From Methanothrix sp. (GTDB taxonomy: Archaea > Halobacteriota > Methanosarcinia > Methanotrichales > Methanotrichaceae), in assembly GCA_963682135.1 (NCBI GenBank), contig OY821645.1:256001-320000 (forward strand): a DNA stretch of 64,000 nucleotides. Reading direction: 5' to 3'. Of the stretch, positions 47,592 through 64,000 are shown in pieces. The position numbers and the translations under genes are program-made. The notes beneath the pieces were generated by a model. The model had not been told where the DNA came from, did no database searches, and was given only the letters and a program-made list of their open reading frames with translations. Position 1 is the stretch's first letter. Every line of letters begins with the position of its first letter.

Positions 47592-48797
47592 ATGACCCGA
47601 AAAGAAGAAAGAATGCCGATGATTGTCGAAATTAAACTTAGCAATCTGCTGTCTTTCGGACCCGATACGGAGCCATTAGCTCTAAAGAATCTCAATATGC
47701 TAATAGGCACTAATGGCTCGGGAAAGTCCAACTTCATTGAGGCAATATCCCTCCTGCGCTCCGCTCCGAGCGACATACGCGCGGTCATTCGTCGCGGGGG
47801 AGGCGTTAGTGACTGGATATGGAAAGGGGATTCAGAAGGTGTTGCCTCTATCGATGTCGTAATCGGAAATCCTCAAGGAAGCATGCCGCTACGCCATGTC
47901 CTAGCCTTTCGAAAAGTGAATCATGCATTCAGCATGGTGGAAGAACGAATCGAGAACGAGAAATCCTATCCAGATTATAATGCGCCCTATTTCTACTATA
48001 ACTATAAGGATGGAAATCCGGTTGTCAACATCAGGAACAAAGGCGAAGATGACAAAACAGAACAACGCAAACTAAAACCTGAGACAATCGATTCGGATCA
48101 ATCCATACTAGCCCAGCGACGAGATCCTGAGACATATCCAGAAATCTCATATCTGGCAAACGCTTATGATAAGATTAAGATATACCGGGAGTGGTACTTT
48201 GGACGTAACGCAGTCTTCCGCGAGCCGCAGAAGGCCGACATGCGTAATGATCGACTGGAGGAAGACTTCTCGAACTTGGGCCTGTTCCTGAACCGTCTGC
48301 GTAGAGTGCCGAAGGCGAAGAATATGATTCTCGAAGCACTTGGTGACCTCTACGAAGGCTTCGATGACTTCGATGTGAGCATCGAAGGCGGCGCGGTCCA
48401 GGTATTTTTCACCGAAGGAGATTTTACAATCCCAGCAACCAGGCTATCGGACGGGACTCTGCGATATCTCTGTTTGTTGGCGATTCTGTGCGATCCATCA
48501 CCGCCACCGCTCATCTGTATCGAGGAGCCAGAACTCGGTCTTCATCCAGACATCCTTCCTAAAGTAGCCGACCTGCTCTATGCCGCCTCAGAGCGCACTC
48601 AGTTAATCGTAACCACACACTCGGACATACTCGTCGATGCGATGACTGAGCAACCAGATGCTGTCCTCGTCTGTGAGAAGCATGATGGCCGGACAAAAAT
48701 CAGAAGACTCGAAAGCGAGAAGCTTGAAAAATGGCTGATGGACTATCGTCTGGGCGAACTCTGGACCCGTGGTGCGCTCGGGGGTACGAGATGGTGA
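47592..48797 (+). CDS. AAA_21/ABC-type ATPase
   Basis: GTNGSGKSN Walker A, LSDGTLR, IEEPELGLHP, TTHS. Confidence 0.88.
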   Translation: MTRKEERMPMIVEIKLSNLLSFGPDTEPLALKNLNMLIGTNGSGKSNFIEAISLLRSAPSDIRAVIRRGGGVSDWIWKGDSEGVASIDVVIGNPQGSMPLRHVLAFRKVNHAFSMVEERIENEKSYPDYNAPYFYYNYKDGNPVVNIRNKGEDDKTEQRKLKPETIDSDQSILAQRRDPETYPEISYLANAYDKIKIYREWYFGRNAVFREPQKADMRNDRLEEDFSNLGLFLNRLRRVPKAKNMILEALGDLYEGFDDFDVSIEGGAVQVFFTEGDFTIPATRLSDGTLRYLCLLAILCDPSPPPLICIEEPELGLHPDILPKVADLLYAASERTQLIVTTHSDILVDAMTEQPDAVLVCEKHDGRTKIRRLESEKLEKWLMDYRLGELWTRGALGGTRW

Positions 48798-49393
48798 GCG
48801 TAACGATATTTGTCGAAGGAGGCGGTGAGAGCAAAGAACTCAAATCGCGATGCCGTGAAGGTTTCAGCAAGCTCATTAAGAAAATGGGCTTTGTCGGACA
48901 TATGCCGAAAATCGTTGCTTGCGGAGGACGCAAAAATGCCTATGACATGTTCAATATAGCTATGACATCAGCTGGATATGATGAATATCCGATACTTTTG
49001 GTCGATAGCGAAGATCCGATTTCCTCGGACCGTCCTTGGGATCATCTTCATGTCCGCGACAGATGGGACCGTCCAGTTGGTGCAAACGATGATCAAGCTC
49101 AGATGATGGCGACTTGCATGGAGACGTGGATAATGGCGGATCATGAGGCCCTGCAAAAAGTATTCGGTTACTGCCTCCGGAGAGGATCTCTCATCCCGGC
49201 AAACAATTTAGAGGAAAGATCAAGGCAAGAACTGCTGGAGGCGCTCAAATCTGCTACGGATAATTGTGGAAGAAACAAAGGATACGATAAAGGAAAACGT
49301 TCATTCCAGATTTTGGCTGAACTGAATACCAGATCGCTTGAGAACTTGAGCTATTTCTGCCGGTTCAAAGAAGCACTTAGCAGGCATCTATAA
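48791..49393 (+). CDS. DUF4276-like (TOPRIM-like) protein
   Basis: IFVEGGG, IVACGGR, LLVDSE, CMETWIMAD; start overlaps the ATPase stop. Confidence 0.75.
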   Translation: MVSVTIFVEGGGESKELKSRCREGFSKLIKKMGFVGHMPKIVACGGRKNAYDMFNIAMTSAGYDEYPILLVDSEDPISSDRPWDHLHVRDRWDRPVGANDDQAQMMATCMETWIMADHEALQKVFGYCLRRGSLIPANNLEERSRQELLEALKSATDNCGRNKGYDKGKRSFQILAELNTRSLENLSYFCRFKEALSRHL

Positions 49394-50267: not shown

Positions 50268-50609
50268 CTAGCCTGAGATGCCGCGCACCAAGTAGAGCAG
50301 ATAGAACTCAGTTAAGTAGCTATCGATGTTGCGCCGGGCTGGTTTGTCGAAGGCTATCTCCTGGACGGGCCGGGTGAGCTTTAAAAGATAGGTGCTGCTG
50401 GCGGGAACTTTCTCGCGATAAATGAGACCGCAGCTTTGCATCTTGCATACTATCTTTGAGCACTTGCTGCTGTCGATGGACATGAGACGGCGCAGCTCCG
50501 ACTGATAAAGGCCGTCTCCTTGCGAGCCGATAAGATCAAGTGCTTTCTCCTGCAGAGCAGAGACGCTGTTGGAGGGATCGTTTATCGAATTTTTTGACAT
50601 TTCTACCAC
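50268..50609 (-). CDS. Small winged-helix protein
   Basis: GLYQSELRRLMSIDSSKCSKIV..M...GLI.R pattern. Confidence 0.7.
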   Translation of the reverse strand: MVEMSKNSINDPSNSVSALQEKALDLIGSQGDGLYQSELRRLMSIDSSKCSKIVCKMQSCGLIYREKVPASSTYLLKLTRPVQEIAFDKPARRNIDSYLTEFYLLYLVRGISG

Positions 50610-50935
50610 AGAGCCAATCTTAGACTTAATTTAATTTGATATACTGTCATGAGGTACTTTTAGTATAAAATCTTTTTGTAATTGTGTCATATTTGGCTCA
50701 AATATTGGGAGAAATCCTAATAGCAGTAAGATAAATTCATGATTGATTTTTATTAATGTATTCTAAATAAAATATACGATTTTATAGTAATTCTTTTCAA
50801 GAAGTACGTCTTTCGCCTAATTGGATATTCATCTCATTACGATCCGATTGATGCTGAAATACCTCTGGCTCATGCTTTCCTTCTCAAAGAGATCATTGGA
50901 AATATTTATTAGCCATCCGAACAAAACCACGTTTT

Positions 50936-51466
50936 ATGTCAGATCCATTTATTGGCGAAATCAGATTGTTTGCAGGCAATTTTGCGCCACTTGACTGGGC
51001 ATTTTGCGACGGCCAGATTATGCAAATAGCTCAAAACACGGCTCTATACTCCATCCTGGGCACAACGTACGGAGGAGATGGAAAGACAACATTTGCTCTG
51101 CCCAATCTCATGGGAAGGATTCCCCTTAGTTTTGGGCAGGGGCCCGGACTCACTAAACATGAACTGGGCGAGACATTTGGAAGCGAGACCATCACACTGA
51201 GCGCAAATCAGATGTCAGCGCACAGTCATTCCGCCACCGTCAAAGCTGCAAACGCTGGCACCACCAATCAGCCGCAAAATAACCTCTTTGGCAAGATCGC
51301 CAGATCTAATATTTATAATACGCCTGATGCAGCTCTAGCAAACATGGCCGAAGGATCTCTTTCCCTGTCTAATTCCGGTGGATCTCAGCCTCATTCCAAT
51401 ATGCAGCCATACTTGACTTTAAGCTTCATCATCTGCGTTTATGGACTCTATCCTGTAAGGGATTAG
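50936..51466 (+). CDS. Phage tail-collar domain protein (microcystin-dependent-protein-like) 1
   Basis: FIGEIRLFAGNFAP..WAFCDGQ...ALYSILGTTYGGDG.TTFALP.L.GR; HSH; PH.NMQPY...FII...G.YP.R. Confidence 0.92.
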   Translation: MSDPFIGEIRLFAGNFAPLDWAFCDGQIMQIAQNTALYSILGTTYGGDGKTTFALPNLMGRIPLSFGQGPGLTKHELGETFGSETITLSANQMSAHSHSATVKAANAGTTNQPQNNLFGKIARSNIYNTPDAALANMAEGSLSLSNSGGSQPHSNMQPYLTLSFIICVYGLYPVRD

Positions 51467-51541
51467 AATTAAGGTAAAGATGCAAAGGCAGATAAAAAAT
51501 TACAAGAAATATTTAATAGCTTAAATATCGATGGAGAAACT

Positions 51542-52072
51542 ATGTCAGAAGGATTTATTGGTGAGATAAGAATGTTTGCAGGCGGTTTTGCTCCACAAGG
51601 TTGGATGGAGTGCAACGGACAGGTCCTGACCATATCTCAATATAATGCGCTCTACAGTATTCTGGGTATAGCATATGGCGGCAATGGAACGACGACCTTT
51701 GCTCTTCCCAATCTCAATGGGCGGGTGCCGATGCATTTCGGCCAGGGACAGGGACAAAACCACATCATTGGCGAGTCGGCAGGATCGAGCAGTGTGGCAT
51801 TTTCAGTTGATCAAATGCCTACCCATTCGCATAACGCCAGACTGAAGGGAGCGAGCCAGGGCAACAGGGATTCGCCCGCTGGAAATGTACCAGGCGCTAC
51901 TGCAGGCATCAAGGCATACAGTCAGTCCTCCGGAGGCACTCTGGCCAATATGGATGGGCAGTCTGTGGTCATCGGCAATGCCGGTGCATCTGCGCCACAC
52001 GAGAATATGCAGCCATATATCGTTACGAATTTCATAATCTGCGTGTCAGGAATCTATCCGTCGCGATCATAA
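51542..52072 (+). CDS. Phage tail-collar domain protein 2
   Basis: Same motifs as paralog 1; GGAG RBS; HSH. Confidence 0.92.
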   Translation: MSEGFIGEIRMFAGGFAPQGWMECNGQVLTISQYNALYSILGIAYGGNGTTTFALPNLNGRVPMHFGQGQGQNHIIGESAGSSSVAFSVDQMPTHSHNARLKGASQGNRDSPAGNVPGATAGIKAYSQSSGGTLANMDGQSVVIGNAGASAPHENMQPYIVTNFIICVSGIYPSRS

Positions 52073-52087
52073 ATTGGAGGAAATTAC

Positions 52088-52621
52088 ATGGACCCATACC
52101 TAGGCGAGATAAAGATATTCGCAGGAACATATGCACCCATGGGCTGGATGATGTGCCAGGGTCAGATTCTACCTATATCTGGAAATGACGCACTTTTTGC
52201 AGTAATAGGTGCCACCTACGGAGGAGACGGCGTAACCAACTTCGCTCTACCGGACTTTCGAGGAAGAGTGCCTCTTGGATACAGTACAAGCTATCCATTA
52301 GGGCAGAAAGACGGATATGAGACGGTAGCGCTCGCTGCAGATAATCTTCCGGTGCACGGCCACCCGGGTCAGGTAAAATGTACCAATAGGAGCGACTCTG
52401 AAACTCCAGGCGGAAATGTACCTAGTGCCGCAGTGATTTCCAGTACTGATGCTCCGAGGAACGAATATGTCCCGTCGGCAGGTCAGACGCTGGTAGATCT
52501 TGCCAGCAGTTGCGTTTCCATCGATCCGGCAGGCGGATCCGTTGCTCATCAGAATATTCAGCCTTCTATGGCATTGAACTTTATCATAGCAGTGGAAGGG
52601 ATCTTTCCAACCAGGGGATGA
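52088..52621 (+). CDS. Phage tail-collar domain protein 3
   Basis: Same motifs; GGAGG RBS; HGH. Confidence 0.92.
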   Translation: MDPYLGEIKIFAGTYAPMGWMMCQGQILPISGNDALFAVIGATYGGDGVTNFALPDFRGRVPLGYSTSYPLGQKDGYETVALAADNLPVHGHPGQVKCTNRSDSETPGGNVPSAAVISSTDAPRNEYVPSAGQTLVDLASSCVSIDPAGGSVAHQNIQPSMALNFIIAVEGIFPTRG

Positions 52622-53164
52622 ATGAAAGGAAGAGAGTCGGGCAGTCCGGAAGGCTGCTGTTGGAGCTATTTAGGCTCGCGGCTGACACTGCGCCCTGCAT
52701 GCCGGGAGGATGATCTGTTTCTTTTTCATCTCTTTTGCAGCATTCGCGAACCTGACTTCGCCTTTCTTGGAGAATTGGAAAGGAAAAAAATAATGGAATT
52801 GCAATTTGCCGCCCAGCAGAGACACTATCAGGCGAATATGCCTGAGGCGGAGCACCTGATTGTCCTTCAGGATGGCGGGTCGATTGGCAGAATGATCCTC
52901 CTTCAGAGGAATGATGAGTTGCATCTGGCAGAGATCGCCCTTTTGCCTGAGCATAGGAACCATGGGATCGGCAGCATATTGATTAAAGAACTTATTAAGG
53001 CTGAGGCAGAACAGGGGCATGCGATCAGGCTGCAGGTCTACAATCATAGCGCAGCGGTGCGTTTCTATCAGCGATTGGGTTTTGTAAAGGCAAGAGATGA
53101 TGGTGCTTACTTGTTTCTGGAAAAGCTTCCCACAATCGGGGGCGATGGTGGGAACATATTTTAA
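52622..53164 (+). CDS. GNAT family acetyltransferase
   Basis: IALLPEHRNHGIGS acetyl-CoA motif, A.RFYQRLGF, LQFAAQQRHY; abuts the third collar gene. Confidence 0.9.
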   Translation: MKGRESGSPEGCCWSYLGSRLTLRPACREDDLFLFHLFCSIREPDFAFLGELERKKIMELQFAAQQRHYQANMPEAEHLIVLQDGGSIGRMILLQRNDELHLAEIALLPEHRNHGIGSILIKELIKAEAEQGHAIRLQVYNHSAAVRFYQRLGFVKARDDGAYLFLEKLPTIGGDGGNIF

Positions 53165-53347
53165 AATAGCGATTAAATTGAAATTTAATTAATAATATTA
53201 TTATTAAGCGGCATGGTAGGGGGCCAAATTAATGAACTATATCGGTCATTACGGCAATGAATCCTTAATTGAGGGTCTTTCAGGGCAGATATTCCGTATT
53301 TTATTGAATGAATTGATTATTCCTTTAAAGGTTCAAGGAGACGCGCA

Positions 53348-56300
53348 ATGTCTCCAATAATGGCAAGATCGGCAGGAATCTGCCTTGCCGCACTTCTTAT
53401 TATGCTGGCGGCGACTGCTCCAGCCAGCGGCGCCTGCACTATGAGCGTTTCCAGGATCGGGACGGCTTCTGATGCCAACGGCGTTTTCGTCTTGAATGAT
53501 AAGGTGTATATCGCATCGACAAATGGACATTACATCATTATGCCTTTGAGCAGCCTGGTTGCAACATCGGATTTTAATATTGGAGGCTCACCGTATGACG
53601 TATTTGTATCGGGTAGTACTGCTTATCTGACCGATTTTTATAGCAGCAATGGAGTCAGGGTTGTCAATGCAGATACGGGGGCCCCTCTGGGAGAATGCAC
53701 CAACTGGCCTTCAGGTCTTTCTGCCATCGGCATTTATAACTCCGGCAGCTACGCCTATGTGGGAGCAACTGACTACACGAACGGCTACCTTGTTGTCTTG
53801 AGCCTGACAACTCCTAACTCACCGAGCGTTGTCAATACCATTTCAAGCGGCCCTATGGCTCAGGGCGGAGGCGGCCTATGTGTTACCGATGGCAAGATTT
53901 ACCTGGCAACCGATAATGGCGTGGATGAATTCACCCTCGGTAACCCAGCCAGTCCCTCCTACTCGGGAACCATTTCTACGCCCTATGGCGCATATGATGT
54001 TCACGTATTCGGCACCAATGCCTATGTTGTTATGGGAACAAATCCGCCTTCCGGCCAACCCAATGTAGTGGTCCTTGACCTCGCTAATTCAGGCACCCAG
54101 ACAGACTGTTATTATGATAGCACTCCGTCTTATGCCCTCCCGCCTTATGCCATCCAGTTCTACAATGGAAAAATATACATCGTTGATCCGAACGGACTCA
54201 AAGAATTGAGCGTAGGATCGGTGTCGGGATCGCTGACCGTTAACCTGGATGCCGTTCCAAATAATGCTCAGGACTTCACCTTCTCAGGCGACCTGGGAAG
54301 CTTCATTCTAGATGACGATAGCGATGACACCTATCCCAGCACCAAGACATTCAGCAGTCTGGCAGCAGGATACTATGCATTCCATCAGACGGTGCCATCA
54401 GGCTGGATCGTGAGCAGCATAACGGCATCAGATGCCAGCAAGGTCACGTACAGCAGCGATGGCAACTCGTGGCACAGCACCTTCACTTCCGGCGATACCT
54501 GGGCGAAGGCCTCAGTACAGGCCGGCGGCAGCACCCTGACGGTAAATTTCCAGGATACCAGAGTTTATTCCATCTCCGGGCATGTGATTTACGATCTGGA
54601 CGGCAACGGGGCTAAGAATAATTTTGAAGGCTACGTGCCCAACGGCTGGGTGGTGCAGCTTTGGAAAGATGGCACACAGACCTCTCAGACAACAACTCTG
54701 AGCGGCGCTTATTCATTCAGCAATCTTCCTGCCGGAAATTACGAGGTAAGGTCCATCTTGCAGACCGGCTGGGTGAATACCATCCCTGCAACCGGAATTC
54801 GCAGCTATTCGCCTCTCTCCTCAGATCAGACCAATCAGGACTTCGGAGTCCGCGGCAGCCAGTCCATTGCCGGCATGAAGTTTCACGACCTTGATGGCGA
54901 TAGAGCCAAGGATGCAGGCGAGCCGGGCCTGGCGAGCTGGACCATCGATCTGAAGAAAGACGGCAATAAGATAGCCAGCACTCAGACCGCTGCCGGAGGC
55001 GCATATTCTTTTGCCGGCCTGGCGCCGGGCAGCTACACCGTCGAGGAGACTCTGCAGTCCGGTTGGATACAGTCCTACCCCGCCTCGCCAGGCACACATG
55101 CAGTAACACTGGTCGCAGGAGTTGCCGGACCGACAGATAAGGACTTTGGCAATTACCAGACTACCGGATTTTCCGGCGTGAAATTCGAGGATCTCAATGG
55201 CAATGGTGCCAAGGATGCGGGCGAGCCGGGCATCTCTGGCTGGACCATTAAACTCAAGCAAGGCGCAACTGAGATCGCCAGCACCCAAACAGGCACAGTC
55301 GGAGCTTATTCCTTTACCGGAATTGCCCCTGGCAGCTACACTGTAGAAGAAGTGGCTCAGAGCGGCTGGACGCAGTCCTATCCTGCAACGCCCGGCACTT
55401 ATCCATTAACTCTAGTCTCGGGAGTTGCCGGGCCGACGGACATCAATTTCGGCAACTTGCGATCCACCGGATTTTCCGGCGTGAAATTCGAGGATCTCAA
55501 TGGCAATGGTGCCAAAGATGCGGGCGAGCCGGGTCTATCCGGCTGGACCATTAAACTCAAGCAAGGCGCAACTGAGATCGCCAGCACCCAAACAGGAACA
55601 GTCGGAGCTTATTCCTTTACCGGAATTGCCCCTGGCAGCTACACTGTAGAAGAAGTGGCTCAGAGCGGCTGGACGCAGTCCTATCCTGCAACGCCCGGCA
55701 CTTATCCATTAACTCTGGTCTCGGGAGTTGCCGGGCCGACGGACATCAATTTCGGCAACTGGCGGGCCACTGGATTTTCCGGCATGAAGTTTGAAGACCT
55801 CAACGGCAATGGAGCCAAGGATGCAGGCGAGCCGGGCATCTCAGGCTGGACCATCAAACTCAAGCAAGGGGCAACCGAGATCACCAGCATCCAAACCGGT
55901 ACAGGCGGAGCCTATTCCTTTACCGGAATTGCCCCCGGCAGCTACACTGTAGAAGAAGTGGCTCAGAGCGGCTGGACCCGATCCTATCCTGCCTCGCCGG
56001 GCACTCATTCATTAACTCTGGTCTCGGGAGTCGCCGGACCGACGAATATTGATTTCGGCAACTGGAAATCGACCGGTCTTTCTGGCGTGAAGTTTGAAGA
56101 TCTCAACGGCAATGGGGCCAAGGATACAGGAGAGCCCGGCATCTCAGGCTGGACAATTAAGCTCATGAGCGGCGCAACCGAGATTGCAAGCACCCAGACC
56201 GGCGCGGGCGGAGCCTATTCCTTCGCCGGCATTTCTCCCGGCAGCTATACCGTCAAGGAAGAAGTCGAGAGCGGTTGGACGCAGTCCTATCCTGCAACGC

Positions 56301-59300
56301 CCGGCACTTATCCATTAAATCTGGTATCGGGAGTCGCCGGCCCGACTAACATCGACTTTGGCAACTGGAAATCGACCGGTCTTTCTGGCGTGAAGTTTGA
56401 AGATCTCAACGGCAATGGTGCCAAGGATACAGGAGAGCCTGGCATCTCAGGGTGGACAATTAAGCTCATGAGCGGCGCAACAGAGATTTCAAGCACCCAA
56501 ACCGGTGCCGACGGCAGCTATTCCTTCGCCGGCATTGCGCCCGGCAGCTACACTGTAACGGAAGCTATGCAGCCCGGCTGGACGCAGTCCTATCCTGCAA
56601 CGCCCGGCACTTATCCATTAACTCTGATCTCGGGAGTCGCCGGACCGGCGAACATCAATTTCGGTAACTGGCGCACCACTGGTCTCTCGGGCATGAAATT
56701 CGAGGATCTCAACGGCAACGGTGCCAAGGATGCAGGCGAGCCCGGCATCTCAGGCTGGACAATTAAACTCATGAGCGACGCAACCGAGATTGCAAGCACC
56801 CAAACCGGTGCCGACGGCAGCTATTCCTTCACCGGCATTGCACCCGGCAGCTACACCATAGAAGAAGTAGCCCAGGGCGGCTGGACGCAATCCTATCCTG
56901 CAACGCCCGGCACTTATCCATTAACTCTGATCTCGGGAGTCGCCGGACCAACGAACATCAATTTCGGTAACTGGCGCACCACTGTTTTCTCCGGCATGAA
57001 ATTCGAAGATCTCAACGGCAACGGGGCCAAGGATGCAGGCGAGCCGGGCCTAAAGGACTGGACCATCAAGCTCATGAACGGCGCAACAGAGATTTCAAGC
57101 ACCCAGACCGGCGCCGATGGCGCCTATTCCTTCACCGACATTGCGCCCGGCAGCTACACCGTAGAGGAGGCTATGCAGGCTGGCTGGGCTCGGACTTATC
57201 CCGCCTCGCCAGGCACGCATACGATAAACCTGGTCTCAGGAGTCGCCGGCCCGACTAACATCAATTTCGGCAATGCCAGAGCTACTGGTTTTTCCGGAAT
57301 GAAATTCGAAGATCTTAACGGCAATGGTGCCAAGGATTTAGGCGAGCCGGGCCTCGAGGGCTGGACAATTAAGCTCATGAGTGGCGCAACAGAGATTGCA
57401 AGCACCCAGACCGATGCCGATGGAGCCTATTCCTTCACCGACATTTCTCCTGGCAGCTATACCGTCAAGGAAGAGGTCAAGAGCGGTTGGACGCAGTCCT
57501 ATCCTGCAACGCCCGGCACTTATCCATTAACTCTGATCTCGGGAGTCGCCGGCCCGACTAACATCGACTTTGGCAACTGGAAATCAACCGGTCTTTCTGG
57601 CGTGAAGTTTGAAGATCTCAACGGCAACGGTGCCAAGGATACAGGAGAGCCCGGCATCTCAGGCTGGACAATTAAGCTCATGAGCGGCGCAACCGAGATT
57701 GCAGGCACCCAAACCGGCGCCGATGGAGCCTATTCCTTCACCGACATTGCGCCCGGAAGCTATACTGTGGAGGAAACTGCGCAAGCTGGCTGGACGCAGT
57801 CCTATCCTGCAACGCCCGGCACTTATCCATTAACTTTGGTGTCGGGAGTTGCCGGACCAAATAACATCGATTTCGGTAACTGGCGCACCACTGGTCTCTC
57901 GGGCATGAAATTCGGGGATCTCAACGGCAACGGTGCCAAGGATGCAGGCGAGCCGGGTCTAAAGGACTGGACCATTAAGCTCATGAGCGGCGCAACAGAG
58001 ATTGCGAGCACCCAGACCGGCGCCGATGGAGCCTATTCCTTCACCGGCATTGCTCCAGGCAGCTACACCGTAGAAGAAGTAGCCCAGAGCGGCTGGACGC
58101 AGTCTTATCCTGCAGCGCCCGGCACGTATCCAGTAACTTTGTCTTCGGGATTGCTGGCTGCTAATATCGATTTCGGCAACTGGAAAGCAACCGGTTTCAC
58201 GGGCCTGAAGTTCGAGGATCTCAACGGCAACGGGGCCAAGGATGCAGGCGAGCCGGGCCTCGAGGGCTGGACAATTAAGCTCATGAGTGGCGCAACCGAG
58301 ATTTCAAGTACCCAGACCGATGCCGATGGAGCCTATTCTTTCACCGACATTGCTCCCGGTAGCTACACCGTCGAGGAGGCTATGCAGGCTGGCTGGGCTC
58401 AGACTTGTCCCGCCTCACCAGGCACGCATACGATAAACCTGGTCTCAGGAGTTGCCGGACCGACGAACATCAATTTCGGCAATGCCAGAGGTACCGGCTT
58501 TTCCGGCATGAAATTCGAGGATCTCAACGGCAATGGTGCCAAGGATGCAGGCGAAACGGGCCTTGAGGGCTGGACCATTAAGCTCATGAGCGGCGCAACA
58601 GAGATTGCAAGCACCCAGACCGATGCCGATGGCAGTTATTCTTTCATCGGCATTACTCCCGGTAGCTACACCGTGCAAGAAGAAGCCCAGGCAGGCTGGA
58701 CGCAGTCTTATCCTGCAACGCCCGGCACTTATCCATTAAATCTGGTATCGGGAGTTGCCGGGCCGACTAACATCGACTTCGGCAACTGGAAAGCAACCGG
58801 TCTTTCTGGCGTGAAGTTTGAAGATCTCAACGGCAACGGTGCCAAGGATACAGGAGAGCCCGGCCTCACTGGCTGGACCATTAAGCTCATGAGCGGCGCA
58901 ACAGAGATTGCAAGCACCCAAACCAATGTCGATGGCGCCTATTCCTTCACCGGCATTGCGCCCGGCAGCTACACTGTAACGGAAGCTATGCAGCCCGGCT
59001 GGACGCAGTCCTATCCTGCAACGCCCGGCACTTATCCATTAACTCTGGTGTCGGGAGTCGCCGGACCGACGAACATCAATTTCGGTAACTGGCGCACCAC
59101 TGGTCTCTCGGGCATGAAATTCGAGGATCTCAACGGCAACGGTGCCAAGGATGCAGGCGAGCCCGGCATCTCAGGCTGGACCATTAAGCTCATGAGCGAC
59201 GCAACCGAGATTGCAAGCACCCAAACCGGTGCCGACGGCAGCTATTCCTTCACCGGCATTGCACCCGGCAGCTACACTGTAGAAGAAGTAGCCCAGAGCG

Positions 59301-62300
59301 GCTGGACGCAATCCTATCCTGCAACGCCCGGCACTTATCCATTAACTCTGATCTCGGGAGTCGCCGGACCGACGGACATCAATTTCGGCAACTGGCGCAC
59401 CACTGGTTTCTCCGGCATGAAATTCGAAGATCTCAATGGAAATGGTGCCAGGGATGCAGGCGAGCCGGGCCTAAAGGACTGGACCATCAAGCTCATGAAC
59501 GGCGCAACAGAGATTTCAAGCATCCAGACCGGCGCCGATGGCGCCTATTCCTTCACCGACATTGCGCCCGGCAGCTACACCGTAGAGGAGGCTATGCAGG
59601 CTGGCTGGGCTCGGACTTATCCCGCCTCGCCAGGCACGCATACGATAAACCTGGTCTCAGGAGTCGCCGGCCCGACTAACATCAATTTCGGCAATGCCAG
59701 AGCTACTGGTTTTTCCGGAATGAAATTCGAAGATCTTAACGGCAATGGTGCCAAGGATGCAGGCGAGCCGGGCCTCGAGGGCTGGACCATTAAGCTCATG
59801 AGCGGTGCAACCGAGATTTCGAGCACCCAGACCGATGCCGATGGAGCCTATTCCTTCACCGACATTTCTCCTGGCAGCTATACCGTCAAGGAAGAGGTCA
59901 AGAGCGGTTGGACGCAGTCTTATCCTGCAACGCCCGGCACTTATCCATTAAATCTAGTATCGGGAGTAGCCGGCCCGACTAACATCGACTTCGGCAACTG
60001 GAAAGCAACCGGTCTTTCTGGCGTGAAGTTTGAAGATCTCAACGGCAATGGTGCCAAGGACGCAGGCGAAACGGGCATCTCAGGCTGGACAATTAAACTC
60101 AAGCAAGGAACAACCGAGATCTCCAGCACCCAGACAGGCACAGGCGGTGCTTATTCCTTTACCGGCATTGCCCCCGGCAGCTACACTGTAGAAGAAGTGG
60201 CTCAGATCGGCTGGACGCAGTCCTATCCTGCCTCTCCGGGCACTCATTCATTTACTCTGGTATCGGGAGTTGCCGGACCAACTAACATCGATTTCGGTAA
60301 CTGGCGCACCACCGGTCTCTCGGGCATGAAATTCGAGGATCTCAACGGCAACGGTGCCAAGGATGCAGGCGAGCCGGGCCTCAAAGACTGGACCATTAAG
60401 CTCATGAGCGGTGCAACAGAGATTGCAAGCACCCAAACCGGTGCCGACGGCAGCTATTCCTTCACCGGCATTGCACCCGGCAGCTACACCATAGAAGAAG
60501 TAGCCCAAGGCGGCTGGACGCAGTCTTATCCTGCAGCGCCCGGCACTCATTCGTTAGCTCTGGCCTCGGGAGTCGCCGGACCAACGGACATCAATTTCGG
60601 CAACTGGCGCACCACTGGTCTCTCGGGCATGAAATTCGAAGATCTCAACGGCAATGGTGCCAGGGATGCAGGCGAGCCGGGCCTAAAGGACTGGACCATC
60701 AAGCTCATGAGCGGCGCAACCGAGATTTCAAGTACCCAGACCGATGCCGATGGCGCCTATTCCTTCACCGACATTGCGCCCGGCAGCTACACCGTCGTGG
60801 AGGCTATGCAGGCTGGCTGGGCTCAGACCTATCCCGTCTCGCCAGGCACGCATTCGATAAACCTGGTCTCAGGAGTTGCCGGCCCGACTAACATCAATTT
60901 CGGCAATGACAGGGCTACTGGTTTTTCCGGAATGAAATTCGAAGATCTTAACGGCAATGGTGCCAAGGATGCAGGCGAGCCGGGCCTTGAGGGCTGGACC
61001 ATTAAGCTCATGAGCGGTGCAACCGAGATTGCAAGCACCCAGACCGATGCCGATGGCGCCTATTCCTTCACCGACATTGCACCCGGCAGCTACACTGTCA
61101 AGGAAGAGGTCAAGAGCGGCTGGACTCAGTCCTATCCTGCAACGTCCGGCACTTATCCATTAACTCTGGTGTCAGGTGTCGCCGGACCGACTAACATCGA
61201 CTTCGGCAACTGGAAATCGACCGGTCTTTCTGGCGTGAAGTTTGAAGATCTCAACGGCAACGGTGCCAAGGATGTAGGCGAGCCGAGCCTTGAGGGCTGG
61301 ACCATTAAGCTCATGAGCGGCGCAACCGAGATTTCAAGCACCCAGACCGATGCCGATGGCGCTTATTCTTTCATCGACATTGCACCCGGCAGCTACACGG
61401 TCAAGGAAGAAGTCAAGAGCGGCTGGACTCAGTCCTATCCTGCGTCACCAGGCACGCATGCAATCACTCTGGTCTCGGGATTGCCAGTTACTAATATCGA
61501 TTTCGGCAACTGGAAATCGACTGGATTTTCCGGCGTGAAGTTCGAGGACAACAACGGCAATGGAGCTAAGGACGCAGGCGAGCCGGGCCTCAAAGACTGG
61601 ACCATCAAGCTTATGAAAGGCACAACAGTGGTTTCGGTCATCCCGACCGATGCCGATGGCGCCTATTCCTTCACAGACATTGCACCCGGCAGCTACACCG
61701 TCGAGGAAGCTGCGCAAGCTGGCTGGACGCAGTCCTATCCCGCCTCGCCAGGCATGCAGACCGTTAACCTGGTCTCAGGTGTGATCGGGCCGAAAAATGT
61801 CGATTTCGGCAACTGGCGTAGCACAGGTTTCTCGGGCATGAAGTTCGAGGACCTCAATGGTAACGGTGCCAAAGATAGCGGTGAACCGGGTCTGTTCGGC
61901 TGGGCCATCGTGCTTAAGAAAGGCGAAACAGTTGTTTCGGTCACCCAGACTGACCCCGACGGCGTTTATTCCTTCGCAGACATTGCACCCGGCAGCTACA
62001 CCGTCGAGGAGGCTATGCAATCAGGCTGGACTCAGACAAATCCCATATGGCCAGGCACGCATTCAGTGACACTGGTATCAGGAATAGCTGGACCGAATAA
62101 TATCGATTTTGGTAACGCGAGAACTACAGGCTTTTCCGGTCTGAAGTTCGAGGATCTCAACGGCAATGGGGCCAAGGACGCAGGCGAGCCGGGCCTCAAA
62201 GACTGGACCATCAAACTCATGAGCGGTGCAACCGAGATCTCCAGCACCCAGACAGCAGCCGATGGCAGTTATTCTTTCATCGGCATTACTCCCGGTAGCT

Positions 62301-64000
62301 ACACCGTGCAAGAGGAAGCCCAGGCAGGCTGGACGCAGTCTTATCCTGCAACGCCCGGCACTTATCCATTAACTCTGGTGTCGGGAGTTGCCGGACCGAC
62401 GGACATTGATTTCGGCAACTGGAAATCGACCGGTTTTTCCGGTATGAAGTTCGAAGATCTCAACGGCAATGGGGCCAAGGACGCAGGCGAGCCGGGCCTC
62501 AAAGACTGGACCATCAAACTCATGAGCGGTGCAACCGAGATCTCCAGCACCCAGACAGCAGCCGATGGCAGTTATTCTTTCATCGGCATTACTCCCGGTA
62601 GCTACACCGTGCAAGAAGTAGCCCAGGCAGGCTGGACGCAGTCTTATCCCGCCTCGCCAGGCACGCATGCAATCACTCTGGTATCAGGAGTGGCCGGACC
62701 GACGGACCTCGATTTCGGCAACTGGAAATCGACCGGCTTTTCCGGCCTGAAGTTCGAAGATCTCAACGGCAATGGAGCCAAAGATGCGGGCGAGCCGGGT
62801 CTGGCTGACTGGACCATCAGGATTATGAAAGGTGCAACAGTGGTTGCCAGCGCCCTGACATTGGCCGACGGTGCTTATTCTTTCACCGGCATTGCGCCCG
62901 GAAGCTACATTGTGGAGGAAACTGCGCAAGCTGGCTGGACTCAGTCCTATCCCGCCTCGCCAGGCACCCAGACCGTTAACCTGGTCTCGGGAGCAGCCGG
63001 ACCGAATGACATTGATTTCGGAAACTGGAGAGCGACCGGTTTCTCGGGAATGAAGTTTAATGACCTGGATAGAAATGGTGCCAGGGATGCAGGCGAGCCC
63101 GGCCTCTCAGGCTGGACCATTAAGCTCATGAAAGGTGCAACCGAGACCTCCAGCACTCAAACAGCAGCCGATGGCAGCTATTCTTTCACCGACATTGCTC
63201 CTGGCAGCTACACCGTGCAAGAGGCAGCCCAATCCGGCTGGGTTCAGTCCTATCCAGCAACGCCCGGAATGCATCCAATCACCCTGGTATCGGGAATAGC
63301 TGGACCGACTGACATTGACTTCGGCAACCGTGGCTCTCTCGCTATCTCCGGCATGAAATTCCATGACAAGAATGCCAACGGCATACAGGATGATGGCGAG
63401 CCGGGTCTCTCAGGCTGGGATATCCAGCTTAAAGATAGCAGCGATAATCTCTTGCAGACCGCCACTACCAGCGCGGAGCCTGGCAAGGAGGGAGTCTATG
63501 AGTTTGCGGATCTGCCGCCGGGAACCTATCGGGTCTACGAGGCACCCAAAACCGGCTGGGTTCGGACTGCACCCGCGGAGGATCACTACGTAATAACCCT
63601 AACTGATTCATCCTCCCGGGGAAATCTCTTTGGCAACAATCAGCTTGCCATCTCCGGTATGAAGTTCCATGATAAGAACGCCAACGGCATAAAGGATGAT
63701 GGCGAGCCGGGTCTCTCCGGCTGGCAGATTCAGCTCAAAGACGGCAGCGACAACCTCCTGCAAACCGTCACCACCAGCTCAGATCCTGGCAAGGAAGGAG
63801 TCTACGAGTTCCTGGATTTGCAGCCCGGCACCTATCATGTCTACGAGATCCAGCAGGATGGCTGGATTCGGACTGCTCCAGATCAGGAGTACCATTCTGT
63901 GACCCTGTCCAACATGCCCTCCCGGGGAAATATGTTCGGAAACAATCTTGTGAATCTCTCCGGCACGAAGTTTGAGGACCTCAACGGCAACGGAGCGAAA
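53348..64000 (+). CDS. Giant secreted surface protein (>3550 aa, partial): LVIVD-like propeller, prealbumin-like domain, about 31 SdrD-B-like repeats
   Basis: Missing from the ORF track because there is no stop in the window. AAGGAG RBS; MSPIMARSAGICLAALLIMLAATAPASG signal peptide; DVFVSGSTAYL and YLVVLSLTTPNSP blades; repeats SG.KFEDLNGNGAKDAGEPG..GWTIKL...G.YSF..IAPGSYTV.E...GW.QSYP...FGN. The last codon at 64000 is in frame with the start. Confidence 0.93.
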   Translation, partial: MSPIMARSAGICLAALLIMLAATAPASGACTMSVSRIGTASDANGVFVLNDKVYIASTNGHYIIMPLSSLVATSDFNIGGSPYDVFVSGSTAYLTDFYSSNGVRVVNADTGAPLGECTNWPSGLSAIGIYNSGSYAYVGATDYTNGYLVVLSLTTPNSPSVVNTISSGPMAQGGGGLCVTDGKIYLATDNGVDEFTLGNPASPSYSGTISTPYGAYDVHVFGTNAYVVMGTNPPSGQPNVVVLDLANSGTQTDCYYDSTPSYALPPYAIQFYNGKIYIVDPNGLKELSVGSVSGSLTVNLDAVPNNAQDFTFSGDLGSFILDDDSDDTYPSTKTFSSLAAGYYAFHQTVPSGWIVSSITASDASKVTYSSDGNSWHSTFTSGDTWAKASVQAGGSTLTVNFQDTRVYSISGHVIYDLDGNGAKNNFEGYVPNGWVVQLWKDGTQTSQTTTLSGAYSFSNLPAGNYEVRSILQTGWVNTIPATGIRSYSPLSSDQTNQDFGVRGSQSIAGMKFHDLDGDRAKDAGEPGLASWTIDLKKDGNKIASTQTAAGGAYSFAGLAPGSYTVEETLQSGWIQSYPASPGTHAVTLVAGVAGPTDKDFGNYQTTGFSGVKFEDLNGNGAKDAGEPGISGWTIKLKQGATEIASTQTGTVGAYSFTGIAPGSYTVEEVAQSGWTQSYPATPGTYPLTLVSGVAGPTDINFGNLRSTGFSGVKFEDLNGNGAKDAGEPGLSGWTIKLKQGATEIASTQTGTVGAYSFTGIAPGSYTVEEVAQSGWTQSYPATPGTYPLTLVSGVAGPTDINFGNWRATGFSGMKFEDLNGNGAKDAGEPGISGWTIKLKQGATEITSIQTGTGGAYSFTGIAPGSYTVEEVAQSGWTRSYPASPGTHSLTLVSGVAGPTNIDFGNWKSTGLSGVKFEDLNGNGAKDTGEPGISGWTIKLMSGATEIASTQTGAGGAYSFAGISPGSYTVKEEVESGWTQSYPATPGTYPLNLVSGVAGPTNIDFGNWKSTGLSGVKFEDLNGNGAKDTGEPGISGWTIKLMSGATEISSTQTGADGSYSFAGIAPGSYTVTEAMQPGWTQSYPATPGTYPLTLISGVAGPANINFGNWRTTGLSGMKFEDLNGNGAKDAGEPGISGWTIKLMSDATEIASTQTGADGSYSFTGIAPGSYTIEEVAQGGWTQSYPATPGTYPLTLISGVAGPTNINFGNWRTTVFSGMKFEDLNGNGAKDAGEPGLKDWTIKLMNGATEISSTQTGADGAYSFTDIAPGSYTVEEAMQAGWARTYPASPGTHTINLVSGVAGPTNINFGNARATGFSGMKFEDLNGNGAKDLGEPGLEGWTIKLMSGATEIASTQTDADGAYSFTDISPGSYTVKEEVKSGWTQSYPATPGTYPLTLISGVAGPTNIDFGNWKSTGLSGVKFEDLNGNGAKDTGEPGISGWTIKLMSGATEIAGTQTGADGAYSFTDIAPGSYTVEETAQAGWTQSYPATPGTYPLTLVSGVAGPNNIDFGNWRTTGLSGMKFGDLNGNGAKDAGEPGLKDWTIKLMSGATEIASTQTGADGAYSFTGIAPGSYTVEEVAQSGWTQSYPAAPGTYPVTLSSGLLAANIDFGNWKATGFTGLKFEDLNGNGAKDAGEPGLEGWTIKLMSGATEISSTQTDADGAYSFTDIAPGSYTVEEAMQAGWAQTCPASPGTHTINLVSGVAGPTNINFGNARGTGFSGMKFEDLNGNGAKDAGETGLEGWTIKLMSGATEIASTQTDADGSYSFIGITPGSYTVQEEAQAGWTQSYPATPGTYPLNLVSGVAGPTNIDFGNWKATGLSGVKFEDLNGNGAKDTGEPGLTGWTIKLMSGATEIASTQTNVDGAYSFTGIAPGSYTVTEAMQPGWTQSYPATPGTYPLTLVSGVAGPTNINFGNWRTTGLSGMKFEDLNGNGAKDAGEPGISGWTIKLMSDATEIASTQTGADGSYSFTGIAPGSYTVEEVAQSGWTQSYPATPGTYPLTLISGVAGPTDINFGNWRTTGFSGMKFEDLNGNGARDAGEPGLKDWTIKLMNGATEISSIQTGADGAYSFTDIAPGSYTVEEAMQAGWARTYPASPGTHTINLVSGVAGPTNINFGNARATGFSGMKFEDLNGNGAKDAGEPGLEGWTIKLMSGATEISSTQTDADGAYSFTDISPGSYTVKEEVKSGWTQSYPATPGTYPLNLVSGVAGPTNIDFGNWKATGLSGVKFEDLNGNGAKDAGETGISGWTIKLKQGTTEISSTQTGTGGAYSFTGIAPGSYTVEEVAQIGWTQSYPASPGTHSFTLVSGVAGPTNIDFGNWRTTGLSGMKFEDLNGNGAKDAGEPGLKDWTIKLMSGATEIASTQTGADGSYSFTGIAPGSYTIEEVAQGGWTQSYPAAPGTHSLALASGVAGPTDINFGNWRTTGLSGMKFEDLNGNGARDAGEPGLKDWTIKLMSGATEISSTQTDADGAYSFTDIAPGSYTVVEAMQAGWAQTYPVSPGTHSINLVSGVAGPTNINFGNDRATGFSGMKFEDLNGNGAKDAGEPGLEGWTIKLMSGATEIASTQTDADGAYSFTDIAPGSYTVKEEVKSGWTQSYPATSGTYPLTLVSGVAGPTNIDFGNWKSTGLSGVKFEDLNGNGAKDVGEPSLEGWTIKLMSGATEISSTQTDADGAYSFIDIAPGSYTVKEEVKSGWTQSYPASPGTHAITLVSGLPVTNIDFGNWKSTGFSGVKFEDNNGNGAKDAGEPGLKDWTIKLMKGTTVVSVIPTDADGAYSFTDIAPGSYTVEEAAQAGWTQSYPASPGMQTVNLVSGVIGPKNVDFGNWRSTGFSGMKFEDLNGNGAKDSGEPGLFGWAIVLKKGETVVSVTQTDPDGVYSFADIAPGSYTVEEAMQSGWTQTNPIWPGTHSVTLVSGIAGPNNIDFGNARTTGFSGLKFEDLNGNGAKDAGEPGLKDWTIKLMSGATEISSTQTAADGSYSFIGITPGSYTVQEEAQAGWTQSYPATPGTYPLTLVSGVAGPTDIDFGNWKSTGFSGMKFEDLNGNGAKDAGEPGLKDWTIKLMSGATEISSTQTAADGSYSFIGITPGSYTVQEVAQAGWTQSYPASPGTHAITLVSGVAGPTDLDFGNWKSTGFSGLKFEDLNGNGAKDAGEPGLADWTIRIMKGATVVASALTLADGAYSFTGIAPGSYIVEETAQAGWTQSYPASPGTQTVNLVSGAAGPNDIDFGNWRATGFSGMKFNDLDRNGARDAGEPGLSGWTIKLMKGATETSSTQTAADGSYSFTDIAPGSYTVQEAAQSGWVQSYPATPGMHPITLVSGIAGPTDIDFGNRGSLAISGMKFHDKNANGIQDDGEPGLSGWDIQLKDSSDNLLQTATTSAEPGKEGVYEFADLPPGTYRVYEAPKTGWVRTAPAEDHYVITLTDSSSRGNLFGNNQLAISGMKFHDKNANGIKDDGEPGLSGWQIQLKDGSDNLLQTVTTSSDPGKEGVYEFLDLQPGTYHVYEIQQDGWIRTAPDQEYHSVTLSNMPSRGNMFGNNLVNLSGTKFEDLNGNGAK
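54570..64000 (+). repeat. About 303-bp coding tandem repeat array (about 31 full units plus start of another)
   Basis: The ttcgaggatctcaacggcaa motif recurs near 55183, 55486, 55789 ... 63971 at about 300-307 bp spacing. Confidence 0.97.

Follow-up and report, generated by a model that had tools for sequence, protein, structure and literature searches.

Proteins with a tail-collar domain are understood as parts of virus particles, and their cellular relatives RhiB, MrpB and COG4675 have stood without a function for decades. In the short tail fibre of phage T4 (gp12), a metal is bound by the HxH motif at the axis of the trimer. According to its published description, the virophage DSLV2 has three consecutive collar-domain proteins that co-purify as a 1:1:1 heterotrimer of ~55–58.3 kDa (J Virol 2025, PMC12724248), and the trio is described there as having fibres of ~16 nm and as binding both Synechococcus cells and the cell-surface glycan lipopolysaccharide (LPS). 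On the cellular side, RhiB (Rhizobium rhiABC), MrpB (Microcystis mrpAB) and the COG4675 "microcystin-dependent protein" are described as non-phage collar proteins of unknown function (PMC13133039, PMC6969944, PMC3328848). The present study concerns a locus of the archaeon Methanothrix sp., contained in a 64,000-nucleotide stretch of contig OY821645.1 (hereafter the window; G000:C1:256001-320000, where G000 is a genome made of a single 3.04-Mb contig). According to the list of open reading frames (ORFs) and their translations, five co-oriented genes on the forward strand, from position 50936 of the window onward, code for three collar proteins (p1, p2 and p3), an acetyltransferase of the GNAT type and a giant secreted protein. 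We consider with high confidence that these genes represent a conserved, non-phage cassette of bacterial type which is inherited together with a propeller-headed giant. Regarding the complete model, with all of its conditional steps, of a chromosomal and non-viral cell-surface cassette of five genes, our position is more tentative and falls somewhat short of an even chance.

Three collar paralogs and an acetyltransferase

The genes for p1 (50936..51466, 176 amino acids), p2 (51542..52072, 176 amino acids) and p3 (52088..52621, 177 amino acids) are separated by only 75 bp (p1–p2) and 15 bp (p2–p3), and the ATG of the GNAT gene (52622..53164, 180 amino acids) comes immediately after the stop codon of p3. 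ORFs were called from the longest start, and some lengths and overlaps are therefore overestimates. A reading made beforehand from the sequence only had described three co-oriented collar paralogs of 176–177 amino acids, an abutting GNAT and a giant protein with a signal peptide, all of which is borne out by the ORFs and the Pfam matches. The Pfam family Collar (PF07484) is matched over its full model (1–57 of 57) in all three paralogs, with E-values of 1.5e-27, 7.5e-28 and 1.7e-26 and scores of 95.8, 96.7 and 92.3 bits for p1, p2 and p3, respectively, against a cut-off of 24. Matches to Gp10_C remain below threshold in two of the three (25.1 bits for p1, with a cut-off of 27), and no NCBIfam model names any of p1–p3. 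The paralogs are well diverged (52% identity for p1/p2, 42% for both p2/p3 and p1/p3) and are the only Collar matches in the whole 3.04-Mb genome.

In p1, the Collar domain (residues 7–63) is followed by the HxH motif, a variable head region and a conserved C-terminal strand. The histidines of the motif (H96/H98 in p1, H95/H97 in p2 and H90/H92 in p3) are invariant in alignments of 13 and of 42 sequences, and align with the HxH of the structure with PDB ID 8kec. The variable part of the collar proteins covers approximately residues 98–145; p3, the most divergent of the three, carries an insertion in this region.

The fourth gene product is matched by five GNAT-type Pfam families, among them Acetyltransf_7 (E = 6.1e-15) and Acetyltransf_1 (E = 1.7e-13). 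Four of the five are above their cut-off, and Acetyltransf_3 is just under it (23.7 vs 25.4 bits). The acetyl-CoA-binding motif of GNATs is R/Q-x-x-G-x-G/A, and the translation contains RNHGIG. No NCBIfam equivalog cut-off is reached by this protein, for which rimI is the best model (40.4 bits vs 86.4).

Collar-trio loci in bacteria

Relatives of the cassette were scanned for with one genome per species, which gave at least 600 stretches, 598 of them confirmed; the best 80 loci, from many phyla, were kept. The number of tandem co-oriented collar ORFs is three in 59 of these loci, six in 2, four in 1, two in 4 and one in 14. In 54 of the 80, the collars have a homologue of the Methanothrix GNAT next to them (E = 3e-31 to ~1e-22 among the matches listed). 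Clustering of the neighbouring genes over the 80 loci brought out a further conserved partner of ~100 amino acids, which corresponds to DUF6916 (PF21880, E = 1e-25). It occurs in 45 of the 80 loci, and 57 of its 58 copies are located within 3 kb of the collar genes.

Large genes are also found next to the collars. Of the 62 loci with three or more collars, 37 have a directly neighbouring ORF of 1000 amino acids or more in the same orientation (upstream in 16, downstream in 18 and on both sides in 3), as do 3 of the 18 loci with fewer than three. Farther out in these loci, beyond 3 kb from the collars, 13 of 485 ORFs (2.7%) reach this size, which makes the enrichment at the cassette approximately 20-fold. 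Among these large neighbours, 38 of 44 are connected to one another by BLAST. The five that were scanned for domains contain Big_9, cadherin-like, right-handed beta-helix, Calx-beta and DUF11 matches, with an SLH anchor in Paenibacillus, and are, judging by these domains, large cell-surface proteins. The module of collar trio and GNAT, with DUF6916 in many cases, is widespread in bacteria and usually stands beside a very large co-oriented surface protein, an association which the sequence-only reading had given from recall and which these counts support.

The DUF6916 genes beside the trios occur in two forms, one of ~100 amino acids without a signal and a longer one with a twin-arginine-type signal (for instance at L070:8019-8510, L086:7346-8506, L056:7857-8336 and L100:527-979, where L numbers denote individual loci). 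Signals of this type were counted on about 10 of the 58 copies (a regular expression gave 11, and the one from L037 was discounted by eye), and nine loci contain signal-bearing and signal-less copies together. The two forms raise the idea that a folded complex may be co-exported by the twin-arginine (Tat) route.

Three types of collar subunit

A tree was built from the 186 collar sequences of 62 trios, that is the 59 bacterial loci with exactly three near-full-length, co-oriented collars and three Methanothrix trios. Most of the bacterial members fall into three clades, A (55 sequences), B (52) and C (45). Clades A and C take at most one member per locus, and B has two members from a single locus. 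One member each of A, B and C is found in 44 of the 62 trios, in the order A-B-C in 34, B-A-C in 9 and B-C-A in 1. The support in IQ-TREE (SH-aLRT) is 95.7 for A, 84.9 for B and a weaker 56 for C. In several lineages (among them Methanothrix, L095, L062 and L034/L060), the three copies of a trio cluster by lineage and lie outside of the A/B/C pattern. This clustering would reflect either separate triplications or gene conversion, and the number three would have been restored either way. An assignment of p1, p2 and p3 to clades A, B and C by HMM score was attempted and discarded, as the scores are ambiguous. Within the genus, three Methanothrix genomes have orthologues of each of p1, p2 and p3 (SH-aLRT 97.7, 91.7 and 94, respectively), and the three types therefore predate those Methanothrix species.

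It could be argued that a trio consists of three separate homotrimers with different binding specificities, carried by the same module. The solved collar-domain fibres are homotrimeric, the T4 short tail fibre being an example, and most deposited phage genomes have just one copy of the family (561 places in 518 records). The lineage-specific clusters described above would also fit a simple duplication for diversity. Such a process does not account well for the counts, since exactly three copies are present in 59 of the 80 loci without a spread of copy numbers, and most of the trios have retained one member from each of the three ancient clades. Moreover, the virophage trio is reported, on biochemical grounds, to be heterotrimeric (PMC12724248). 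We regard the homotrimer explanation as unlikely, though with a real share of the probability. A 1:1:1 heterotrimer of p1–p3 is what we infer from the three orthologous bacterial clades and from the virophage precedent. In structure prediction, the p1+p2+p3 complex (alignments of 42 rows, 41 for chain 2) scored 0.33, compared with 0.35 for a control in which chain 1 was replaced.

The giant protein

The giant gene starts at 53348 and runs past the end of the window. Read on in the genome, it stops at window coordinate 69298 and codes for 5316 amino acids. The only hydrophobic windows of the protein are N-terminal and correspond to a predicted signal peptide (53348..53434, + strand). This peptide ends in G-[A/S/N]-C, of which G28 and C30 do not vary among five orthologues. 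The motif looks similar to a lipobox, and the giant may thus have an anchor of the lipoprotein type; an N-terminal lipobox, if present, would place the following domain near the membrane. The cysteine of the motif (residues 25–31, window 53420-53440) is kept even in the 35%-identical protein of genome G026, which is not the case for the other cysteines of the propeller.

The signal peptide is followed by a predicted N-terminal beta-propeller (53435..54217, + strand; approximately residues 30–290), modelled by AlphaFold2 with block pLDDT values of 83–93 for residues 31–230 and 70–83 for residues 231–290. The PDB matches of this model in Foldseek are beta-propellers, including 8okv (E = 4.3e-10), and the best of them are propellers of surface proteins, such as the YVTN propeller from an S-layer protein of an archaeon (1l0q, E = 1e-9). 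Next comes a strand-rich stretch predicted as an Ig-like beta-sandwich linker (54218..54577, + strand; approximately residues 291–410, block pLDDT 45–68), for which partial matches exist in other Methanothrix giants. The stalk of SdrD_B/Cna_B-type repeats begins at 54578, fills the window to 64000 (+ strand; SdrD_B E = 0, 31 stretches within the window) and continues to about residue 4450. In the full protein there are ~40 SdrD_B repeats and 39 D-x-[ND]-x-[ND]-G motifs, mostly spaced by 101 amino acids. With ~40 repeats of the Ig-like kind, the stalk would, by our estimate, measure some 100–150 nm. The C-terminal module of ~750 amino acids is non-repetitive, with three DUF11 stretches in the last 816 residues. 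A hydrophobicity scan showed no hydrophobic segment or membrane anchor at the C-terminus, the LPXTG motif not having been specifically searched for.

The C-terminal module (~660 amino acids in this comparison) is found in 55 of the 59 Methanothrix genomes considered here, and G000 alone has 16 matches, in ORFs of up to 6167 amino acids. Because of these numbers, the module can be taken to mark a surface-protein family that is very large and specific to the lineage. Module-bearing sites of G000:C1 include 1392442-1400175, 1857753, 353331, 2770418, 1987652 and 2760755. The closest paralog of the giant has 2578–2582 amino acids, with a C-terminus that is 85% identical and part of the N-terminus that is 36% identical, and has no collar genes upstream.

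Inheritance of the cassette in Methanothrix

Collar matches were obtained in 7 of the 59 Methanothrix genomes. The match in G020 is weak and under the family cut-off, G010 has one copy only, where its contig begins, and three matches are present in five genomes. In the six collar-bearing genomes, the gene order is always trio, GNAT and giant wherever the contigs permit it to be followed. The five-gene order is found in G004 and G069 within the same flanks as in G000, and is complete in G026 within other flanks; in G071, whose flanks likewise differ, it holds through the start of the giant, where the match ends. An empty site was identified in G062 (99% complete), which has the flanks of G000 (a MarR-like gene and a DHH phosphoesterase gene) separated by a gap of 281 bp, the whole 18.4-kb block being missing. 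The 420-residue N-terminal region of the giant behaves in the same manner as the collars: matches at E ≤ 1e-47 are found only in the six collar-bearing genomes out of 59, and five of these span nearly the whole query, the other matches to this region being weak and partial. The five genes are thus present or absent as one block in Methanothrix. The gap between the MarR-like and DHH genes (from window 50268-50609 to coordinate 69345; loci L143, L146 and L126) is a variable site in the genus, which is empty in G062 and occupied by the five genes in G000, G004 and G069.

These observations bear on whether the trio and the GNAT merely adjoin the giant by chance and are functionally unrelated to it. 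Such an adjacency would be in line with the membership of the giant in a 16-member paralog family of G000, with a promoter of its own that it could possess, and with its lack of homology to the large neighbours in bacteria. It is difficult to reconcile with a five-gene order that is kept in different flanks, with the clean empty site of G062, with the perfect co-occurrence of the collars and the N-terminal domain of the giant across 59 genomes, or with the ~20-fold enrichment of large neighbours in bacteria. We therefore find chance adjacency very unlikely. That trio, GNAT and giant belong together, as had been supposed from the sequence, is supported by their gain or loss as a unit.

Outside of the genus the cassette is seldom encountered. 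Among 401 genomes taken as a sample of the phylum, 7 have any Collar match, and the short tandem trio is found only in G000. Four methanogen genomes from other genera of the same class (G044, G045, G051 and G265) have a single Collar match each, in ORFs of 277–475 amino acids whose architecture is not that of the short trio. The Methanothrix collar clade is nested among bacterial sequences in both FastTree and IQ-TREE trees, and the bacterial homologues are ~50% identical to the Methanothrix collars, while the best phage match is at 38% (to p2). Since few genomes of the phylum have the cassette, its distribution within the genus is patchy and the collar clade is nested among bacterial sequences, a bacterial origin of the collar and GNAT part is likely, in agreement with the acquisition from bacteria that the earlier reading had deemed probable. 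Between G000 and G026, the identity (tblastn) is 48–55% for the collars, 51% for the GNAT, 32% for the propeller region and 61% for the C-terminal module.

Genomic surroundings

The intergenic region upstream of p1 (50610..50935, 326 bp) is rich in AT, with a GC content of 0.298 compared with 0.501 for the genome, in accordance with the AT-rich region reported earlier at this place. It lies between p1 and the divergent MarR-like gene (50268-50609, minus strand) and presumably contains the promoter of the cassette. The MarR-like gene is not a part of the cassette, as it is still in place in the empty-site genome G062. A second AT-rich spacer of 183 bp, read from the sequence, separates the GNAT from the giant (53165..53347).

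Upstream of the block are the genes for a glutamyl-tRNA synthetase (GluRS), a defence pair of the HEC-01 type (AAA_21 and DUF4276), a UbiA prenyltransferase and the MarR-like protein. The giant is followed by genes for the DHH phosphoesterase, a phosphodiesterase, a TPR protein, a phosphatidylserine decarboxylase and other housekeeping functions. No phage or injection-system genes were found by annotation of the flanks, within ~11 kb upstream or ~20 kb downstream of the block. In the scan of the whole genome, the closest Phage_integrase match is ~590 kb away, the HK97-type capsid family (Phage_capsid) has no match anywhere in G000, and the sole sheath-like gene is ~170 kb beyond the end of the giant gene. 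The block is consequently not a prophage, tailocin or injection-system locus. The sequence-only reading had called the system non-phage from the window alone and had left open what follows position 64000; the extended reading, with the giant closing at 69298 and housekeeping genes beyond, upholds it.

The single Phage_sheath_1 match of the genome is situated at G000:C1:496997-497488, within an ORF of 508 amino acids. Sheath matches occur in 27 of the 59 Methanothrix genomes, which suggests that contractile injection-like loci are common in the genus. One may ask whether the cassette is what remains of a prophage, a tailocin or a contractile injection system, or whether its fibres are used in trans by a distant sheath locus, given that Collar is a phage tail family, that G000 does have the sheath-like gene at 496997 and that a sheath is present in 4 of the 6 collar-bearing genomes. 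Besides the flanks described above, the distances speak against this (~170 kb past the end of the giant in G000 and ~62 kb from the trio in G026), as does the presence of sheath matches in 23 of the 53 collar-less genomes, and no phage structural family is found among the conserved neighbour clusters of the 80 bacterial loci. This explanation is hardly credible in our view. The idea of collars serving as fibres of a contractile injection system in trans was rejected, the sheath genes being unlinked to the trio and common in genomes without collars.

The AAA_21 ATPase and DUF4276 pair (window 47592-49393) matches the PADLOC candidate defence system HEC-01 (HEC-01A, E = 1.7e-180; HEC-01B, E = 2.5e-68). 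The pair is at the same place in G004 and G068, and is missing in G062 and G029, where the GluRS gene adjoins UbiA. No PADLOC model was matched by the trio and the GNAT in the scan for defence systems.

The location of the cassette in a variable island adjoining the HEC-01 pair could be taken to indicate a defence by receptor masking, in which a self-made knob of viral type coats the cell's own receptor (the giant or its glycans) and blocks the adsorption of viruses. The homology of the collars to phage receptor-binding tips and their patchy, accessory distribution would agree with this, as would the fast divergence of the propeller head (32% identity between G000 and G026, vs 61% for the C-terminal module) and a signal of positive selection described for collar paralogs of Solibacter (PMC3174227). 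There is, on the other side, neither a PADLOC match nor an experimental hint for such a role, and masking shares the problem of export with the reading that we favour. Masking appears improbable to us.

Proposed mode of action

In the model that we favour, p1, p2 and p3 would come together in equal numbers (1:1:1) as a compact trimeric knob of the type found in phage receptor-binding tips, centred on a metal that the HxH motif would hold. The variable region of each subunit (approximately residues 98–145) would contribute to a binding face of three parts. The knob would act at the cell surface together with the giant, most likely docked on the cassette-specific propeller head or bound to the glycans of the giant, where it would add or tune a binding specificity. 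The GNAT might acetylate a cassette protein before export, which is a guess. The collar and GNAT part would have come from bacteria and been re-coupled in Methanothrix to a stalk of archaeal type. If the system has indeed been re-coupled to an unrelated stalk, its partnership would be with "a long stalk" and not with one protein family.

Several observations weigh against this model. The Methanothrix paralogs form a clade of their own (FastTree support 0.985; SH-aLRT 86.9 together with two bacterial sequences) instead of joining A, B and C, and their HMM scores against the three clades differ by at most ~30 bits, in an inconsistent and ambiguous manner. The monomer model of p2 is poor (pLDDT 47.8). 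An adjacent ORF of at least 1000 amino acids is lacking in 25 of the 62 bacterial loci with three or more collars, although in several cases the contig is cut or the neighbour has 820–920 amino acids. The giant itself is dissimilar to its bacterial counterparts: phmmer searches with its N-terminal 400 residues, a repeat stretch and its C-terminal 756 residues against the ORFs of the 80 loci gave nothing at E = 1e-3, and BLAST clustering leaves it unlinked to the bacterial large neighbours. A physical link, if real, can for that reason not use a conserved docking domain. Nearly all copies of the C-terminal module in the genus are without collar genes nearby, and the 183-bp spacer in front of the giant may hold a second promoter, for the giant alone. 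In G011, a methyltransferase-like gene and one for a rhodanese-like secreted protein are beside the MarR-like gene, and a seemingly related giant is beside the DHH gene, with no collars, on short contigs. Finally, a hydrophobicity scan revealed no signal peptide or hydrophobic segment in p1–p3 or the GNAT, which leaves them with no visible export route, and a six-frame search of all of G000 with an HMM made from the bacterial DUF6916 copies had no hit at E ≤ 10.

The last two points are also the basis for an alternative in which collars and GNAT act inside the cell only, whether by helping the large secreted protein to mature, by controlling its quality or by regulating it, or in some unrelated role linked to acetylation. 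GNATs use cytoplasmic acetyl-CoA, most of the bacterial collar ORFs begin directly at the collar domain, and Methanothrix has neither DUF6916 nor another visible export partner. Against a purely intracellular role stands the fold, which is that of an extracellular receptor-binding tip. Some bacterial collar homologues do have N-terminal signal peptides, and some of the DUF6916 proteins have signals of the Tat type. Furthermore, we know of no catalytic or chaperone role for collar domains. An intracellular role is, in our estimation, unlikely, while still deserving attention.

Returning to the surface model, the sequence-only reading had proposed a domesticated phage-fibre system in which a heterotrimeric module works with, or caps, the giant stalk and one component is modified by the GNAT. 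Its non-phage nature, the linkage in bacteria and the co-inheritance are in its favour. The surface part of the proposal fared less well, with collars that lack a signal peptide, a giant that does not resemble the bacterial neighbours and a C-terminal module that is mostly found without collars. A broader version is conceivable, if rather doubtful: an unrecognised and widespread prokaryotic surface system of DUF6916, collar heterotrimer, GNAT and giant adhesin. A knob of viral-tip origin would there be acetylated in the cytoplasm, exported in some bacteria with Tat-signal DUF6916, and used as an exchangeable specificity tip or glycan-binding partner of giant stalks; the system would have crossed to Methanothrix with the loss of DUF6916 and the gain of a new stalk.

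Comparison with known systems

The analysis provides a defined genomic setting for cellular collar proteins, which comprises a strict trio, three ancient subunit types, a dedicated GNAT, DUF6916 (sometimes with a Tat signal) and a large surface protein. In this setting, what has been a curiosity of annotation becomes testable in culturable organisms such as Paenibacillus, Myxococcus, Hymenobacter and Dyadobacter. Methanothrix is a key acetoclastic methanogen that forms sheathed filaments and aggregates; there, the cassette points to an accessory surface structure acquired by horizontal transfer, which could bear on aggregation, on contact with partners or on resistance to viruses. If the model is true, the cassette would clearly exemplify how cells of different domains can reuse a viral receptor-binding module. 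Our literature search, which did not extend to supplementary files, returned no publication on DUF6916, none joining the tail collar with a GNAT, none joining Methanothrix with a tail fiber and nothing pertinent joining RhiB with a tail.

Among the cellular collar proteins, RhiB and MrpB differ from the present cassette by their description, in which a single collar gene stands beside RhiA/RhiC or MrpA; the published accounts consulted mention no trio, GNAT, DUF6916 or giant. As for the giant, it resembles the SdrD/Cna-type adhesins in being a stalk-like secreted protein with SdrD_B repeats, and its beta-propeller head resembles 1l0q, as in the archaeal S-layer proteins with a YVTN propeller. 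Unlike SdrD/Cna adhesins, it has no C-terminal hydrophobic segment (LPXTG again not being specifically searched for) and ends instead in the DUF11 module typical of Methanothrix. To our knowledge, neither the SdrD/Cna adhesins nor the YVTN S-layer proteins have accessory collar genes.

With T4 gp12 and other phage tips (PDB IDs 1ocy, 1pdi, 5iv5 and 8kec), p1–p3 have in common the succession of a collar and a head with the HxH motif, and the family profile matches 8kec (E = 8.7e-10) and 1ocy (E = 1.5e-4). Tips of the gp12 type are however homotrimers with a long N-terminal fibre shaft, whereas p1–p3 begin at the collar domain (residue 6–7) and have no shaft, and their identity to phage proteins does not exceed 38%. 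Loci with at least three short collar ORFs do exist among viral sequences (14 of 78 viral loci in IMG/VR, some of those contigs being possibly cellular). In one phage-like contig (L180:3224-9546), the gene for a 1450-residue collagen-like tail fibre (phrog_5073, E = 9e-174) is followed by one for a 123-residue protein of unknown function (phrog_30535) and then by three consecutive collar ORFs of 190, 165 and 175 amino acids. Being collagen-like, this fibre is presumably trimeric. Tail modules of this kind share with the Methanothrix locus the layout of a long stalk and a collar trio, and differ from it in that the fibre comes first (the order is reversed) and is collagen-like, and that there is no GNAT.

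Among the closest counterparts of the trio itself is that of DSLV2. As described, the DSLV2 proteins are virion parts whose docking on the capsomer has been modelled, and they come without a GNAT, DUF6916 or a giant surface protein. The Methanothrix trio instead belongs to an archaeal chromosome and has no virion genes in its vicinity, nor is there a Phage_capsid match in the genome. Both, going by the published description of the virophage, consist of three consecutive small collar genes whose products have a variable head, and the mass of the DSLV2 complex is close to that of p1, p2 and p3 combined.

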